In this document: positions 36,151-47,554 of the stretch, one piece after another
Layout of the letters: every line of letters starts with the position of its first letter
Numbering within the stretch: the first letter of the stretch is position 1
Assembly (NCBI GenBank): GCA_964469955.1
Contig: CAYXZK010000005.1
Location: 47,410 to 111,409 of the forward strand
DNA length: 64,000 bases
Direction: 5' to 3'
Origin: an uncultured Candidatus Saccharibacteria bacterium
Lineage (GTDB): Bacteria > Patescibacteriota > Minisyncoccia > Minisyncoccales > GWA2-38-27
Program-made: the position numbers and the translations under genes
Notes under the pieces: generated by a model
Database searches by the model: none
The model's input: only the letters and a program-made list of their open reading frames with translations
Told to the model about the DNA's origin: nothing

Positions 36151-38361
36151 TTACGCCCTTAAATTTGACCATTTTCCGCAACGGTCCCCCCATCTACTAA
36201 CTACTTTACCATTAATCCTGGCTTCAATCACTTCGCATTGGTTGGGGCAACCGTCGCAAGTGAAAGAAGAAGTTTTAATTTCTTGATTAGAAACATCCCA
36301 TCCTCTAAATTTGCCTTTGCTTTCCTGGCCAGCTCTTTGTTCCATTGCCAATAAAGCGACGCCTAAAGCGCCCATCACTATATTATGTTCTGGCACAATG
36401 ACTTTCTCTCCTAATTCTTGCTCAAAAGCTCTTATCATTCCTTTATTTTCGCTTACTCCGCCCTGAAAAACAATAGGTGGCTGTATGTTTTTGCCTTTTC
36501 CAACACCAGCTAAATAATTTCGCGCTAATCCTTGGCAAAGACCTGCGACAATATCTTCGGTCTTGTGTCCAATTTGTTGTTTATGAATCATATCCGACTC
36601 TGCAAAAATTGTGCAACGTGAAGCAATCGTAGTAGGGCTGTTTGACTTTAAAGCAACTTCCCCGAATTTTTCTATGGGAATTTCTAATCTAAAAGACTGC
36701 GCGTCTAAAAAAGATCCTGTGCCTGCAGCGCAATTATGAACTGCTATATTGTTGACAACATAAGAGTCATCTTTTGCTACTTTAAAATTATAAATATTTC
36801 CATTAAATTTATATTTGCTGATTTTCCTAATTGGCTCAAAAAAGAAATTAGAATAAATAAAAGATTTAGAGCTCTGCTTCTTTGGATTAATCAACGAACC
36901 ATCTTCCAGCTTATTAATATCTCTTCCGTGAACAGAAATAAAATAAACATATTTTCCACCTGTAGTCTTTTTAAAAGATCTTCGTAAAGTGCATTTGATT
37001 TTATTCCTCAATAAAATCCAATACAATTGATGAGCAAGAACTTCAGAAACAGTAGAGGAAACATACCTATTGCCAATTTTATTTTTACCTAATGTGTTTT
37101 TAGGTCTTTTCCTTAGCCGTCCATCGCCTCTGAAAAATCCTTTTAATATTTCTTTTTGCAGAGAAGGCTCCAATTTTAACAACTCTCGACTTATTTGTTT
37201 CTTGTCTGCACAAGAACCGCAAAGATATTTTACATAATCTGCTAAACTTTTACTATAAATCGAAACTGTGGCTGAACGATGCTCAGAGTTCTGTCTAACT
37301 TTAACATTAATGTCTTTAAAATTATGAGAAATAATGTTTTTTATATCTTTTACATAATTTTTTTCGTTAATATTAAACACAAAAGAAATCCCTCTTGGAT
37401 GTCTAATTTCCTTGTTCCCACAAGCTTGATTATATATAATAGACCCTTCTGCCAAATAATACCCTAAGAACCTAAACAAATCTGGTTTAAACATAAATTT
37501 GTCTATTTTTTTAAAAGGCTTAGATGCTTTGGGTTCAGTTTTTATAACCGAATAATCTATAAAAGTAGAATTATCAATTTTTGAAGGCAAAGGTGTTGCG
37601 ACGAAATCTCCTTTTCGAAATTCTTGTGCTGGAATAAATTTTGGCTCCCATGAAAAATTCTTATGTTTAACACAACGCTTTTTGCAAGTTCTTTCTTCCG
37701 GAGGTTTACAAATAACAATATTTTTTCTCACATTATCTTGATAGCATTTTATGTCTTTTCTTTTTAATCCTAAAATTGGATGTTCTGGTGTAATTTCCAA
37801 TTTTTTCAAGTTTGAAACTTCAATATCGATCATTTCCCCCTTATAATGCCTTTCAAAGACTTGATCTATTTTTTGAAAATCTCCCTGATGAGTTAAAACA
37901 TGCTGACCAATTTTTACTTCTTTTATAGGTCTTGAAGAATAATTTGGGTTTGTGGTTATCTTTGAATTACTACTCAAACAAATTGCGTTCATGCCAAAAT
38001 CAATTGCTACTCCGTCCTCTAAAATAATAATTTTTGAGTCTTGTCCTCCTATTTCAATAATTGTTCTAACTTCTGGAACTAAAAAACTTGATGCTTTAGC
38101 GTGAGATGTTATCTCATTTTTAACTAAATCAGCTCCTGCAATCACTCCTGCTAAATAGCGAGCTGAACCAGTTGTTCCAACTCCCCAGACTTCAACGCCT
38201 TCACCGATCTGTTCTTTTACTTTTTTTAAACCTGTTTTAACAGCAGTAATCGGATCTCCTTCTGTCCTAATGTATAAAGAAGCTAAAATTTCTTTTTTTT
38301 CATTTACCAGAACAAAATCTGTTGAGATAGAACCGACGTCAATTCCTAAATAAGTTTTCAT
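36151..38361 (-). CDS. BadF/BadG/BcrA/BcrD (HgdC-like) ATPase, 'CoA-enzyme activase', intein-containing precursor with Cys-rich C-terminal extension
   Basis: Exteins: MKTYLGIDVGSISTDF... (ASKHA phosphate-1), ...DFGMNAI | CAAGTGSFLD... (phosphate-2), ...IVFQGGVSENKGM. Removing residues 128-543 restores the canonical MNxxCAAGTGxFL motif. The extein total is about 320 aa. The C-terminus has CDGCPNQC...C. Confidence 0.85.
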   Translation of the reverse strand: MKTYLGIDVGSISTDFVLVNEKKEILASLYIRTEGDPITAVKTGLKKVKEQIGEGVEVWGVGTTGSARYLAGVIAGADLVKNEITSHAKASSFLVPEVRTIIEIGGQDSKIIILEDGVAIDFGMNAICLSSNSKITTNPNYSSRPIKEVKIGQHVLTHQGDFQKIDQVFERHYKGEMIDIEVSNLKKLEITPEHPILGLKRKDIKCYQDNVRKNIVICKPPEERTCKKRCVKHKNFSWEPKFIPAQEFRKGDFVATPLPSKIDNSTFIDYSVIKTEPKASKPFKKIDKFMFKPDLFRFLGYYLAEGSIIYNQACGNKEIRHPRGISFVFNINEKNYVKDIKNIISHNFKDINVKVRQNSEHRSATVSIYSKSLADYVKYLCGSCADKKQISRELLKLEPSLQKEILKGFFRGDGRLRKRPKNTLGKNKIGNRYVSSTVSEVLAHQLYWILLRNKIKCTLRRSFKKTTGGKYVYFISVHGRDINKLEDGSLINPKKQSSKSFIYSNFFFEPIRKISKYKFNGNIYNFKVAKDDSYVVNNIAVHNCAAGTGSFLDAQSFRLEIPIEKFGEVALKSNSPTTIASRCTIFAESDMIHKQQIGHKTEDIVAGLCQGLARNYLAGVGKGKNIQPPIVFQGGVSENKGMIRAFEQELGEKVIVPEHNIVMGALGVALLAMEQRAGQESKGKFRGWDVSNQEIKTSSFTCDGCPNQCEVIEARINGKVVSRWGDRCGKWSNLRA
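36733..37980 (-). mobile_element. Intein (416 aa) with embedded LAGLIDADG homing endonuclease, inserted in the activase CAAGTG motif
   Basis: Starts with Cys (CLSSNSKITT, block A), has block B ITPEHPIL and a C-terminal ...NFKVAKDDSYVVNNIAVHN followed by the +1 Cys. Two LAGLIDADG motifs are present: FLGYYLAEGS and LKGFFRGDGRL. Confidence 0.8.
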
Positions 38362-38372
38362 ACGTTATACGT

Positions 38373-39440
38373 TTATGTATTTTTTTTATTATGATAATTA
38401 TTAACTACATCCGAGAATGCCTCTAAGCGAGTTTGAATTCCCGCTTCGGCTACTTGTTCGTCTAAAGACAAAGATAAAAACGGGATTTTCTTTTCTTTGT
38501 GTATCTTTTCTAAAATAGGCCTGACAGTAACCTCTGGCATACAAGCAAGTGGCAAAATATGAACCACGCCATCAAGTCTTTTTTTAACAGCAACCAGCAT
38601 TTCGTTGACAGCATCTCTGCCATGCCCACCAACAGTTGTTTTTAAATAAGGATAAACCCTTTTCTGCGCAATATAGTCCAACCAAGGAAAAGCTTCGTGC
38701 CTTAGAAAATACGAAAGACTAAGGTCTCGATGAACTTCCATGCCCATTTGTCCTAATTTCTTTTCTAAATCAAAATTAACAATATTGTCGGTTACCATAA
38801 AAATTTCTCCCAGAATGCCTATCTTTATTACGTCTTTATTTTTTATTATTTTAATTTCTTTAAGTTTTTTTAAAGTCTTTTTTTTAAGTTTGCGCAAAGC
38901 GCTTCTTGTTTTTAGCGCGCCTATATTATTAAAAAAATAATCTAAAACTTTATCTGTCTCTCCTTTTGTCGTTTCTCTTGGTCTAAAATAAGCAGCTTTC
39001 TTTTCTAATCTTTCTATAAATCTAATTATACTAAAAGTAGAGTAAAAAGCATCTAATATTTTAAACCAAGAAATTTTATTTATTCTCTTTATTTCTCTTA
39101 TTCTTGAAATAGGATGGCTTGTATTCAGGTTTATAATCTTTGCTTTAAATCCAGCATCGTTTAAGGCTTTTTGTTGAATTATCCAATAATATCTAAATCT
39201 ACAAATACCTCCTAAATTTTCCCACATGAAAATAGTATCTGCGCCTCTTCTTAAAGAAGATACATAATTTCCCATATTTACTTTCAAGGGAAAACAAAAA
39301 AGTTCCGGGGAAATCCTTGCTCCTTCTCTAATAGAGGTTTGGTTAGTTTTTTCAGGAGCAATAACGTCAAATCCCAATTTTTCAAAGAGAATTGTAATCG
39401 CAGGAGTATAATGCCCCCAATATGGAAAAGTTACTTTCAT
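38373..39440 (-). CDS. Acyl-CoA dehydratase activase-related protein (YjiM/DUF2229-like, HgdB-related), paralog B
   Basis: 355 aa with FCFPLK... and a C-terminal LSLDEQVAEAGIQTRLEAF motif shared with the upstream paralog. There is an 11-nt gap to the activase gene. Confidence 0.55.
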   Translation of the reverse strand: MKVTFPYWGHYTPAITILFEKLGFDVIAPEKTNQTSIREGARISPELFCFPLKVNMGNYVSSLRRGADTIFMWENLGGICRFRYYWIIQQKALNDAGFKAKIINLNTSHPISRIREIKRINKISWFKILDAFYSTFSIIRFIERLEKKAAYFRPRETTKGETDKVLDYFFNNIGALKTRSALRKLKKKTLKKLKEIKIIKNKDVIKIGILGEIFMVTDNIVNFDLEKKLGQMGMEVHRDLSLSYFLRHEAFPWLDYIAQKRVYPYLKTTVGGHGRDAVNEMLVAVKKRLDGVVHILPLACMPEVTVRPILEKIHKEKKIPFLSLSLDEQVAEAGIQTRLEAFSDVVNNYHNKKNT

Positions 39441-39448
39441 AAAATAAA

Positions 39449-40471
39449 TTAATGAATTGTGTCTACAAATGCCTCTAATCTGGTTTGCAACCCAGCTTCA
39501 GCAGTATGTTCGTCAACCAATAAATATAGAAATGGAATCTTTCTCTGTTTAAACATTTTTTCAATGAACTCTTTCAAAACCGAATCGCATCCACACTGAA
39601 ACGCAGATACTTCAATAGCCCCTGATAATTTTAATAAAGACAACGCTAAAGATTCTGCTTTAAGGTTGTCGTCATTGGTCTCATTTACCTTTGCTAGTAA
39701 GCTAATCTTAATAATCTTCTGGACTTGTTCTGTTATGTCTCTGCCAAATTCCCAATGCCAGTTGGGAAACTCAGAATCCTTGGCAGCTATTTCATCATGT
39801 GTTAATTTTTCAATAAAACCCATTTTGTTGTTTAGCGATCTGTCTTGTTTTAGTGGGATTTCGTCAATATATATTAATTCCATCCCAAGATCGTTTATTT
39901 TTTTCTCAATCCCCAAATTTACGTATTCGTCGTAAAGTATATACGGATGGCTTATAAAAACTATTTTTTTGCGCTGCGATTTGATTTTTTTATAAAAAGA
40001 TTGCTTTTTTTTTGCTTCTCGTTTCTCTATTTCTCGTTTGCCTTTGTTGATAGCTTTTTTAATTTTCTCTGGGTCGTTGCAAAATTGTTTTCCTATTTTA
40101 AAAGCAACCTTATCAAGAGATTCTTTTTTAAAATCAATTTTTGGAAAAATTATAGGAGTTTTAATTACTAAAGCAGCTATATCTGAAAGGGCAAAAAATT
40201 TAGGGCAATATTCAAGCCCTATCTTGTTTCTAATCATACGCGGAATAAAAATGTAATCTACCTTATCTTCCAATTCTAAAACATGGCCTAAAAAAACTTT
40301 GCTAGAAAAACAACTTTCCGTATCAGACGCTTTTGTCCCTTGAGCCACGATCTGTCTATTGGTTAATGGAGAAATTAACACATTTAAATCTATGTTTTTA
40401 AAAAAAGTCCTCCAAAATTCAATTCCTGGTTCTTTCCAATAAATTAAAGCTCTTGGTATTCCAATTGTCAT
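39449..40471 (-). CDS. Acyl-CoA dehydratase activase-related protein (YjiM/DUF2229-like), paralog A
   Basis: Begins MTIGIPRALIYWKEPGIEFW..., the start I recall for DUF2229, and ends LLVDEHTAEAGLQTRLEAF. The ORF-track start at 40501 is a TTG, and the ATG at 40471 is preferred. There is an 8-nt gap to paralog B. Confidence 0.55.
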   Translation of the reverse strand: MTIGIPRALIYWKEPGIEFWRTFFKNIDLNVLISPLTNRQIVAQGTKASDTESCFSSKVFLGHVLELEDKVDYIFIPRMIRNKIGLEYCPKFFALSDIAALVIKTPIIFPKIDFKKESLDKVAFKIGKQFCNDPEKIKKAINKGKREIEKREAKKKQSFYKKIKSQRKKIVFISHPYILYDEYVNLGIEKKINDLGMELIYIDEIPLKQDRSLNNKMGFIEKLTHDEIAAKDSEFPNWHWEFGRDITEQVQKIIKISLLAKVNETNDDNLKAESLALSLLKLSGAIEVSAFQCGCDSVLKEFIEKMFKQRKIPFLYLLVDEHTAEAGLQTRLEAFVDTIH

Positions 40472-40537
40472 ATAAGTTAATAAACGATAGTTAATGATCA
40501 ATAATCACTAATCAATTATCACCAATCAATCATTGAA

Positions 40538-41797
40538 TCAGAAAAGCGTATTTTGCTGATCCGGATTCTTTCTCTTTGTTTTTGAAAAAATTTCTACTTT
40601 TCCAAAAACTCCGTCATATCCAGGCAATATATTTATTTTCCCCTGCCTAACCCTTATAACCCCTTCAGCAATTTTTGGCAATGTCGCTTTTTCTAAGTCT
40701 TGATATGAAGAATCTAACAAAATTTTAAATTCACTTTCGAATTTTTTAATTAAGTTTTCGTATTCCGCTTTAACCTTTTTAGAGTTAGGCAATGTTCCAA
40801 CGGCTTCAGCGATAATTTCTTTCAAAGGAACTAAGCTTTTAAACGGAATAGCTTTTTTCGGCTTAACTCCTTCTTTTCTGTCTGCTAAGAAATTAATCCT
40901 GTTTAAAACTCCAATTGTTAAGGGTTTCCCGCAAACGGGACAGATGTTATTGTATTTTTCTGATTCCGCGGGATTCAAGCAAACAGCGCAAGCGCGATGA
41001 CCATCGTAATGATATTTGCCTTCTTGCGGAAAAAATTCAATAGTATAGGCAAACTTATTTGAATTCTTAGACTTTAATGCTTCTATGATAGAAAAATAAT
41101 CAAGTTCTGTATCAAAAACATTTGCTTCTCTTCCTAATTTCTCTGGAGAATGCGCGTCGCTGTTTGAAATCAAGGTTATGCTATCTAAAGCTGATATTCT
41201 CCAAAGCATCGGACAATCTGCCGACAATCCTGTTTCTATGGCAAAGATATAATTTGATAGGTCTTCAAAACATTCTTCAATAGAATCAAAACCTGATTTT
41301 GAACCGAATATTCCAAACCAAGGCGTCATGCAATGAGCAGGAACAACTAAACATTCTGGAGAAACGCTTAGAACGATTTTTAGAAGCTCTTTTGCATCTA
41401 ATCCTAAGATTGGTCTTCCATCAGCTTTTAAATTTCCGATCAAGCTAAGCTTATTGTTGATTTTTTCAACTATTTCAAAACTTGGAGCAAAAACCAAAAT
41501 ATGTATTTTCCTAACCCTGCCATTTTTAGAATAAATACAACTAATTTCAGAAGTCAGCATGAAACGAGTAAATTCATTGCCTTCTAAAAAACTTTTTTTT
41601 AACTTAAACAATCCTTTTTCGCATGGCTCGAGTTTATTCCGCAAGTTTTGAAACCATTCTGGATGAGTAAAATCGCCTGTGCCTAAAACTTTTATTCCTT
41701 TTATTTTCGCCCATCTGTCCAAACTTTCTAAGTCCATATTCTTGCTTGTGGCGCGTGAATACTTGGAATGAATATGAAGGTCCGCTATAAATACCAT
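40538..41797 (-). CDS. PHP-family phosphoesterase with Zn ribbon (COG1379/TIGR00375-like), putative endonuclease Q (EndoQ) homolog
   Basis: 419 aa with an N-terminal PHP motif ADLHIHSKYSRAT, later His/Asp ligands, and an internal CAVC...CPVC zinc ribbon. Length and architecture match archaeal EndoQ. Confidence 0.6.
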   Translation of the reverse strand: MVFIADLHIHSKYSRATSKNMDLESLDRWAKIKGIKVLGTGDFTHPEWFQNLRNKLEPCEKGLFKLKKSFLEGNEFTRFMLTSEISCIYSKNGRVRKIHILVFAPSFEIVEKINNKLSLIGNLKADGRPILGLDAKELLKIVLSVSPECLVVPAHCMTPWFGIFGSKSGFDSIEECFEDLSNYIFAIETGLSADCPMLWRISALDSITLISNSDAHSPEKLGREANVFDTELDYFSIIEALKSKNSNKFAYTIEFFPQEGKYHYDGHRACAVCLNPAESEKYNNICPVCGKPLTIGVLNRINFLADRKEGVKPKKAIPFKSLVPLKEIIAEAVGTLPNSKKVKAEYENLIKKFESEFKILLDSSYQDLEKATLPKIAEGVIRVRQGKINILPGYDGVFGKVEIFSKTKRKNPDQQNTLF

Positions 41798-47272: not shown

Positions 47273-47554
47273 TTATATCTTGTACACCTTGTATCCCTCT
47301 CTAACTTTTTCTTTAATTTTCATTCCAATTTCGTCGCCTTTTTTGGCTTTTTTAATCTTTTTGTGCTCAACTTCCATTGATTTAACTTTTTGCTTGAAAT
47401 CAGTCTTCTCTCCCCCAATAACCCTAATAGAGTCTTCTATTGATAAAGGCGCAGACAACTTAATCACAGCTACTTCAACTTTTGCGAAATAATGCACAAT
47501 TTCTCCAATTAATTTTTCTTTTTTTGAAGATATATGAGAAATCTCTTTTGGCAT
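47273..47554 (-). CDS. Hypothetical K-rich small protein (EF-Tu domain-2-like beta-barrel?)
   Basis: 93 aa with an alternating hydrophobic pattern IGEIVHYFAKVEVAVIKLSAPLSIEDSIRVIG. Confidence 0.4.
   Translation of the reverse strand: MPKEISHISSKKEKLIGEIVHYFAKVEVAVIKLSAPLSIEDSIRVIGGEKTDFKQKVKSMEVEHKKIKKAKKGDEIGMKIKEKVREGYKVYKI

Follow-up and report, generated by a model that had tools for sequence, protein, structure and literature searches.

What is the 416-residue insert that interrupts an activase ATPase immediately before one of its conserved cysteines, and what would have to happen to it before the enzyme could work? The question is raised by a 64,000-nucleotide stretch of DNA (hereafter the window) from an uncultured Candidatus Saccharibacteria bacterium, taken from contig CAYXZK010000005.1 of GenBank assembly GCA_964469955.1 at positions 47,410 to 111,409. 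We read the insert as a canonical class-1 intein with a LAGLIDADG homing endonuclease, seated in the activase of a three-gene activase/HGD-D-like cluster, and give this reading a probability of roughly 0.85. The element itself is of a well-known kind; what the locus adds to the intein catalogue is a well-supported host family and insertion site, and also a natural example of a +1 splicing nucleophile that probably doubles as a ligand of a redox-active [4Fe-4S] cluster.

The boundaries of the insert follow from translation: the upstream host portion ends in DFGMNAI, the insert begins with CLSSNSKITT and ends with YVVNNIAVHN, and the host resumes with CAAGTGSFLD. The parts of the precursor are listed below in the direction of translation, with lengths in amino acids (aa) and for some of them with supporting evidence in brackets.

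36151..38361, minus strand: precursor activase gene with in-frame intein, stop codon included (open reading frame (ORF) list, 736 aa; Pfam and NCBIfam).
37981..38361, minus strand: N-extein, aa 1-127, ending in DFGMNAI (translation; gap-free alignment to 1HUX, 4EHT and 9GAI).
36733..37980, minus strand: intein, 416 aa, precursor aa 128-543 (Pfam, TIGR01445, AlphaFold2 model, Foldseek).
37951..37980, minus strand: block A, CLSSNSKITT, intein residues 1-10; the codon of Cys1, the predicted first-step nucleophile, is 37978-37980.
37780..37791, minus strand: block B, TPEH (TxxH; intein T64 and H67), within ITPEHPIL at intein residues 63-70.
37672..37746, minus strand: Cys-rich insert in the Hint-N half (intein C79, C91, C99 and C103).
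36892..37485, minus strand: LAGLIDADG endonuclease domain, approximately intein residues 166-363 (Pfam LAGLIDADG_3; Foldseek).
37441-37470, minus strand: LAGLIDADG motif 1, FLGYYLAEGS, intein residues 171-180, with acidic E178.
37114-37146, minus strand: LAGLIDADG motif 2, LKGFFRGDGRL, intein residues 279-289, with acidic D286.
36733..36801, minus strand: blocks F and G, GNIYNFKVAKDDSYVVNNIAVHN; the terminal His-Asn lies at 36733-36738, with Asn543 the predicted cyclising residue.
36151..36732, minus strand: C-extein, aa 544-736 plus the stop codon (alignment to 7yyl_E and 1HUX).

Domain profiles identify both proteins at a level well above chance. The precursor matches Pfam BcrAD_BadFG as two separate stretches (7e-44) and also matches Intein_splicing above the cutoff (1e-10) and LAGLIDADG_3 at the cutoff. 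The excised 416-aa segment matches Intein_splicing at 1.7e-11 (44.6 bits, cutoff 35.8), LAGLIDADG_3 at 2.1e-5 (25.1 bits, cutoff 22.5) and TIGR01445 intein_Nterm with 26.3 bits (cutoff 24.5), and it holds all the canonical class-1 residues, namely Cys1, TxxH, the C-terminal His-Asn and Cys+1. When the segment is removed in silico, the remaining 320-aa protein gives one continuous BcrAD_BadFG match, residues 5-256 on profile positions 1-271; it scores 171.7 bits for PF01869 (cutoff 31.5), against 150.8 for the precursor, and 200.6 bits for TIGR00241 (cutoff 125.4), against 184.6. The spliced protein also aligns with the solved activators MbdQ (9GAI_D, 4e-45), HadI (4EHT, 2e-43), HgdC (1HUX, 1e-37) and DCCP-R (7YYL_E, 3e-23), and these alignments are gap-free across the splice junction.

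A structural model of the insert points to the same identity. A sequence search of the intein against the PDB gave a best match of E = 0.044, to PI-PkoII. An AlphaFold2 model, built from an alignment of 20 related inteins (A1), has a mean predicted local distance difference test score (pLDDT) of 87.3 and a predicted TM-score of 0.88, with its low-confidence part confined to approximately residues 80-110 (pLDDT means of 47-58 in ten-residue blocks). All 16 of the top Foldseek matches of this model in the PDB are endonuclease-containing inteins, TliVMA (7qss) being the best at 2e-19 and 7qss, 1vde, 2cw7 and 1dq3 together covering 2e-19 to 2e-15, and the endonuclease part matches the free-standing enzymes I-DmoI, I-OnuI, I-AniI and I-Tsp061I at 2.5e-7 to about 1e-5.

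An empty allele supplies the host in its uninterrupted form. The intein-free homologue P0121 (locus L001) is 320 aa long, exactly the predicted spliced length, and 92% identical in protein sequence; its DNA and the spliced coding sequence of the window are both 963 nucleotides, colinear and 85% identical, and the two proteins do not differ at any of the 12 residues to either side of the junction. At the DNA level the junction of the L001 allele reads GATTTTGGAATGAACGCAATT / TGCGCAGCAGGGACAGGA, where the slash, here and below, marks a splice junction. Each of the 119 further extein homologues listed is 314-333 aa long and free of an intein domain, and those among them with an organism named in the source are mostly Patescibacteria, Nealsonbacteria or Parcubacteria. 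The domain identities, the exact in-frame boundaries and the colinearity of the host after excision are thus direct observations, and the activase genes of about 740 aa in related genomes are neither fusions nor new domain architectures. An original prediction, made from the DNA letters of this locus, is borne out on all these points: the ORF list and the translation give the 736-aa ORF and its 416-aa insert at 36733-37980 (aa 128-543), the strings quoted for blocks A and B, both LAGLIDADG motifs and VVNNIAVHN followed by CAAGTG are all present, the BadF/HgdC-type host scores above the BcrAD_BadFG and TIGR00241 cutoffs, the family-profile alignment is broken by the insert and single after excision, the insert matches Hint and LAGLIDADG profiles (Intein_splicing, TIGR01445 and LAGLIDADG_3), and the continuous CAAGTG motif expected from excision is seen in P0121 with its identical length and junction, one of the intein-less homologues anticipated in relatives.

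Why should an intein sit at this residue? The host motifs that bear on the answer are all present and aligned with the solved activators in the spliced protein, as befits an ATPase of the ASKHA fold.

38317-38346, minus strand: phosphate-1 motif GIDVGSISTD in the N-extein (aligned with solved activators).
38038-38055, minus strand: phosphate-2 motif EIGGQD in the N-extein (DCCP-R phosphate-binding residues, PMC9351452).
36715-36732, minus strand: CAAGTG, start of the C-extein; the +1 Cys codon is 36730-36732.
36595-36621, minus strand: SRCTIFAES, which holds the putative second ligand, Cys583.
36445-36468, minus strand: adenosine motif FQGGVSEN.
36178-36258, minus strand: Cys-rich C-terminal tail.

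In DCCP-R, C115 and C152 coordinate a [4Fe4S] cluster that bridges the dimer, and the phosphate-binding residues are S9-N11 and the stretch numbered Q92-D94 (PMC9351452). Alignment places the latter stretch at the GGQD motif, which lies 23 residues upstream of the insertion in the window protein, and places the +1 Cys (C128 of the spliced protein) on DCCP-R C115 and HgdC Cys127, and the Cys of SRCTIFAES (spliced C167) on DCCP-R C152 and HgdC Cys166, the HgdC numbers being counts along the 1HUX alignment; a literature search for HgdC Cys127 and Cys166 as ligands found nothing relevant. By homology, we therefore infer that the intein is inserted immediately before a cluster-ligand cysteine, so that the splicing nucleophile would later become a metal ligand. 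This changes one claim of the original prediction, in which CAAGTG was called the phosphate-2 motif: that assignment is wrong, since GGQD binds phosphate in DCCP-R and the CAAGTG cysteine aligns with the ligand C115. The further claim that the intein targets the most conserved catalytic motif stands as far as a conserved functional residue is concerned, although this residue is a probable cluster-ligand cysteine and not part of a phosphate motif, and insertion before such a cysteine fits targeting of the most conserved functional residue better than the phosphate-motif reading did.

No equivalog model that would point to a substrate of the activase system was reached. The models run covered benzoyl-CoA reductase subunits A, D and Q and methanogenesis marker 15, and the scores fell below the cutoffs for TIGR02259 (106 against 578), TIGR03192 (92.7 against 380), TIGR02261 (58 against 313) and TIGR03286 (139.6 against 456).

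Established intein chemistry predicts how the 320-aa enzyme would be made, and homologous structures how its cluster would be held. After translation, an N-S acyl shift at Cys128 (Cys1 of the intein) would be followed by attack of Cys544 (+1) on the thioester in a trans-thioesterification; cyclisation of Asn543 would then free the intein, and an S-N shift would link DFGMNAI to CAAGTG in the mature activase. Cys544 and Cys583 (spliced Cys167) would afterwards ligate a [4Fe-4S] cluster bridging the activase homodimer. Because 416 residues stand at a cluster ligand, the unspliced precursor should be no working electron donor, and splicing would be obligatory. The predicted DNA target of the endonuclease is the junction GATTTTGGNATGAACGCAATT / TGCGCNGCAGG of intein-free alleles; after its cleavage, the intein would be copied in by repair (homing). 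Splicing, endonuclease activity and cluster binding are accordingly things that we infer, and the family to which the intein belongs offers a view of how plausible they are.

Inteins at the same site, hereafter site a, are numerous among relatives. A search with the precursor listed at least about 55 intein-bearing alleles, and those with a named carrier come from Ca. Paceibacterales, Ca. Nealsonbacteria or 'Patescibacteria group'. In a set of 48 full-length sequences, made up of the window protein and 47 relatives 38-69% identical to it, every intein has Cys first, Asn last and Cys at +1. Within alignment A1, Cys1, T64, H67, C79, C91, C103 and N416 are invariant, as are G173, Y174, L176 and G179, and E178, G285, D286 and G287 are at least 90% conserved. 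The exteins show 60-69% mean identity, with ATP-binding and cluster motifs intact. The Cys-rich insert CYQ...ICKP...TCKKRC (intein residues 79-103) lies outside the standard intein blocks and is possibly a small metal-binding knuckle; its C99 is at least 90% conserved beside the three invariant cysteines, and it coincides with the one low-confidence stretch of the AlphaFold2 model.

Some site-a hosts have altered motifs. In P0050, P0052, L011 (Ca. Nealsonbacteria CP179888.1), P0241, P0249 and P0054, CSGGCG or CGGGTG replaces CAAGTG, and P0050/P0052 (L011) also have DLGQED in place of GGQD, which suggests a divergent paralogue that still carries an intein at the same cysteine.

Intein and extein histories are discordant. 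Their identities correlate across the family (Spearman 0.71), with some pairs strongly out of line. Between P0026 and P0032, the N-extein and Hint-N agree at 93-100%; starting at about alignment column 250 and as far as the C-terminal junction, identity is only 23-50%, and past that junction it is back at 87-100%; P0025 and P0037 are likewise mosaic, with endonuclease and Hint-C halves 23-50% identical. The breakpoints thus fall at two places, within the intein near column 250 and at its C-terminal splice junction, a pattern to be expected from recombination or from re-homing into a site already occupied; it belongs to the family and not to the window copy. Occupied, empty, double-intein, mini-intein and mosaic alleles are all seen at the site, a range that is useful for the study of the homing cycle in uncultured Patescibacteria.

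Several points weigh against the reading of an intact, homing intein in a cluster-binding host. Block F reads DDSY and has no His of the kind common in many inteins, S406 and Y407 being invariant. Splicing and DNA cleavage are predicted from sequence, for the window copy and for the whole family alike, and the ligand role of the cysteines is carried over by alignment from homologues of about 30-40% identity, as judged by eye. The six public contigs shown that carry the allele differ from the window gene by 0-2 synonymous bases, so that no test of selection on the window copy is possible. Close site-a relatives are confined to four genomes among the GTDB species representatives, two of which are complete Nealsonbacteria chromosomes. 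Viral contigs hold relatives of at most 29% identity to the intein only, on which ground phage as a vector was rejected, and current mobility of the window copy is unproven.

These points matter most for the strongest competing explanation, in which the intein splices while its endonuclease is inactive or decaying, the element being fixed, vertically inherited and on its way to a mini-intein. We regard this as a possible but clearly less probable state of affairs. Six mini-inteins of 140-184 aa do occur at exactly site a, with the endonuclease deleted and the Hint halves 44-54% identical to the window intein, and their differing deletion sizes suggest independent losses of the endonuclease. 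Of the 48 full-length inteins, 18 have K, G, A, S or R where the penultimate His would stand, and P0031 has lost three of the four cysteines of the Cys-rich insert together with part of the endonuclease region (the insert is absent from the shorter mini-inteins as well). The narrow spread over four GTDB species representatives fits a decaying element too, and LAGLIDADG motifs alone are no proof of activity. The window copy, however, keeps the penultimate His and the acidic residues of both LAGLIDADG motifs. Mean identity over the 47 homologues is 0.60 in the endonuclease region, 0.58-0.61 in the Hint parts and 0.62 in the N-extein, a near equality that speaks against unconstrained loss of the endonuclease in the family as a whole; the mosaic alleles, moreover, show recent DNA exchange that includes the endonuclease region. 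The proteins with a replaced penultimate His include P0003, P0005-P0008, P0010, P0011 and P0013.

Is the intein confined to the activase? A second site lies before the other putative ligand cysteine, where inteins of the form SSR/CLTEDN...FLCHN/CTIFAES in P0061-P0065 and P0072 are about 24-30% identical to the window intein, and in P0014 (1161 aa) both putative ligand cysteines are preceded by an intein. When 1.84 billion representative proteins were searched exhaustively with the intein alone, 4,901 matches at E <= 1e-3 came back, and the hosts of ten of the best full-length matches were scanned. Two of the ten are activases interrupted at site a, as are the top matches P0009 and P0050; five are DUF2229/HGD-D partners interrupted at EMM/C...HN/CMPFKV and LPxx/C...HN/CMPE; two are S-adenosylmethionine (SAM) methyltransferases and one has no recognisable host domain. 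The partner-subunit inteins (P0242, P0245-P0248, P0106 and P0111; L012-L014) are 35-43% identical to the window intein, and an intein at the CMPE site occurs in Dehalococcoidia as well. The cysteines at these partner sites may be cluster ligands; alignments of the partner subunits to DCCP and HadC, which bear on this, are weak (E about 0.07-0.1). The methyltransferase inteins (P0243 and P0258; LDVG/C...HN/CGQG), in hosts that are SAM-dependent, are 34-38% identical to that of the window, which means that the intein lineage is not strictly limited to the activase system.

The corresponding genes of the window are the partners of the activase, which is the last gene of a cluster in the order DUF2229/HGD-D, DUF2229/HGD-D, activase.

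38373..39440, minus strand: partner subunit, 355 aa, DUF2229 with an HGD-D C-terminal motif, adjoining the activase upstream in the same orientation (Pfam).
39449..40501, minus strand: second partner subunit, 350 aa (340 aa in public gene calls), DUF2229 with HGD-D, first gene of the cluster (Pfam).

The equivalents of the partner insertion sites are ELF/CFPLKV and LPLA/CMPE in the gene at 38373-39440; in both partner genes of the window the cysteines are present and no intein was found.

A regulatory interpretation, raised for redox in the original prediction and chemically plausible, is that splicing is conditional, gated by redox state (for example through a Cys1/Cys+1 or other disulfide) or by iron-sulfur availability; the oxygen-sensitive activase would then reach its mature form under reducing conditions only, and the intein would be a regulatory device more than a parasite. 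Both Cys1 and Cys+1 are thiols, four further intein cysteines are conserved, and related inteins stand before conserved cysteines of several subunits of the same system. A precedent by analogy is the intein of P. abyssi MoaA, likewise housed in an oxygen-labile iron-sulfur enzyme with catalytic cysteines, in which a Cys of the N-extein forms a disulfide with Cys1 and traps the precursor (PMC10663303). The last N-extein residues of the window protein, DFGMNAI, contain no Cys, unlike those of MoaA; a +1 Cys is needed by any Cys-dependent intein, conserved functional sites are the usual targets of inteins for selfish reasons, and many close relatives live without the intein. We consider conditional splicing unlikely here. 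Equally doubtful, in our judgement, is its broader form, that a single intein lineage has become specialised for the conserved and probably cluster-binding cysteines of one ATP-driven iron-sulfur reductase system and serves, through splicing tied to redox state or iron-sulfur availability, as a maturation switch of an oxygen-sensitive enzyme and not a pure parasite. The locus, with sister inteins at the second putative ligand cysteine and in the partner subunits, does offer a concrete test system for redox- or cofactor-conditional splicing in such an enzyme.

The genomic setting bears on whether the interrupted gene is alive at all. An identical precursor protein (P0001) is found on 9 metagenome contigs, and the three-gene order is kept on all six public contigs shown that encode an identical activase (JGI 3300001533, 3300001335, 3300077563, 3300077317 and 3300077522; SRR2989655). 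That the insert no longer splices and that the gene is dead, its frame open by chance or through a recent event, is therefore a very improbable account: although splicing is a prediction here and block F has the atypical DDSY in place of a His-containing motif, the 2,211-nt ORF is intact and identical on these nine independent contigs, the essential splice residues are present and invariant across homologues down to 38-69% identity, the exteins are conserved with their ATP-binding and cluster motifs intact, and the partner genes are intact. Finally, the idea that the insert is a native accessory domain, a bacterial intein-like (BIL) domain or another Hint domain such as Vint has sub-threshold Pfam matches to Vint and Hint_2 in its favour and is ruled out for practical purposes, since the insert is absent from the closest homologue, which is colinear with the spliced product, the modelled fold matches solved inteins, the Intein_splicing cutoff is passed, and Cys1, TxxH and a canonical His-Asn/Cys stand at an invariant functional residue, while BIL domains typically lack the +1 nucleophile or the C-terminal His-Asn and lie in variable regions, not at catalytic residues. 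The reading of a canonical class-1 intein with its homing endonuclease is thus the one that we retain.

The remainder of the window looks like an ordinary low-GC bacterial chromosome, with rpoB/rpoC, GroEL, FtsK, RNase J, LigA and a P-type ATPase, six tRNA genes and no rRNA; the GC content is 29.6% in the intein against 34.9% and 41.6% in the exteins and 32.7% in the window. A scan of the ten largest remaining ORFs of the window turned up no further intein. The gene order of the window is shared with JGI contigs such as 3300001533 MLSed_10000033 (118 kb), and a Pol X/PHP polymerase gene lies at 1029-2759. Directly upstream of the three-gene cluster, a 419-aa gene at 40538-41797 on the minus strand has a precomputed Pfam match to PF27218 (MJ0043_C), and its N-terminus, DLHIHSKYSRATS, is one that we take to be PHP-like from its appearance. 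An 83-aa plus-strand ORF at 36736-36987, antisense to the C-terminal part of the intein, was dismissed as a mechanical ORF of AT-rich sequence with no support.

How new is the site? The original prediction had held it to be undescribed, which is true of the searched literature, where nothing linking inteins to the activase ATPase family was found; the main text of a 2015 intein survey (PMC4760082) has no mention of 'activase', 'dehydratase', 'BadF' or 'iron-sulfur'. It does not hold for databases, given the site-a alleles counted above, and the JGI pipeline labels a few of these proteins 'activator of 2-hydroxyglutaryl-CoA dehydratase/intein/homing endonuclease'. The host family and the site are new to the searched literature and already visible in public databases and automatic annotation.

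Comparison with known systems places both halves of the precursor. On the host side, the nearest known proteins are the activators ('archerases') of 2-hydroxyacyl-CoA dehydratases and their relatives: the spliced extein aligns over its whole length with HgdC (1HUX), HadI (4EHT), MbdQ (9GAI) and DCCP-R (7YYL), and the aligned features are GIDVGS, GGQD, the two ligand cysteines and the GG adenosine motif. The solved activators are all without an intein, whereas the window protein has one; it is also extended at the C-terminus by a Cys-rich tail some 60 aa long (CDGCPNQC...C) and has DUF2229/HGD-D proteins as partners.

On the intein side, the next tier outside the activase/HGD-D hosts and the methyltransferase hosts P0243 and P0258 consists of the widespread SufB (Pps1-type) inteins, YVEG/C...HN/CTAP, which are 25-31% identical over their full length (L015, L019, L024, L059, L066 and L087), far below the 45-69% among site-a activase inteins. 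They resemble the window intein in having Cys1 and Cys+1 and an iron-sulfur-related host, although host and site differ. Among solved inteins, TliVMA (7qss), PI-SceI/Sce VMA1 (1vde, 1lws), PI-PkoII (2cw7) and PI-PfuI (1dq3) share with it a Hint domain split by a two-motif LAGLIDADG endonuclease, the residues Cys1, TxxH, His-Asn and Cys+1, and insertion at a conserved ATPase residue, with query-normalised TM-scores of 0.55-0.64 at a sequence identity of only 11-18%. Their hosts are V-ATPases, polymerases or ribonucleotide reductases, whereas that of the window is an iron-sulfur electron-transfer ATPase of the ASKHA type, and the window intein differs from all of them in the conserved four-Cys insert of its Hint-N half and in a +1 cysteine that, to judge from its alignment with DCCP-R C115, would go on to serve as a metal-cluster ligand.

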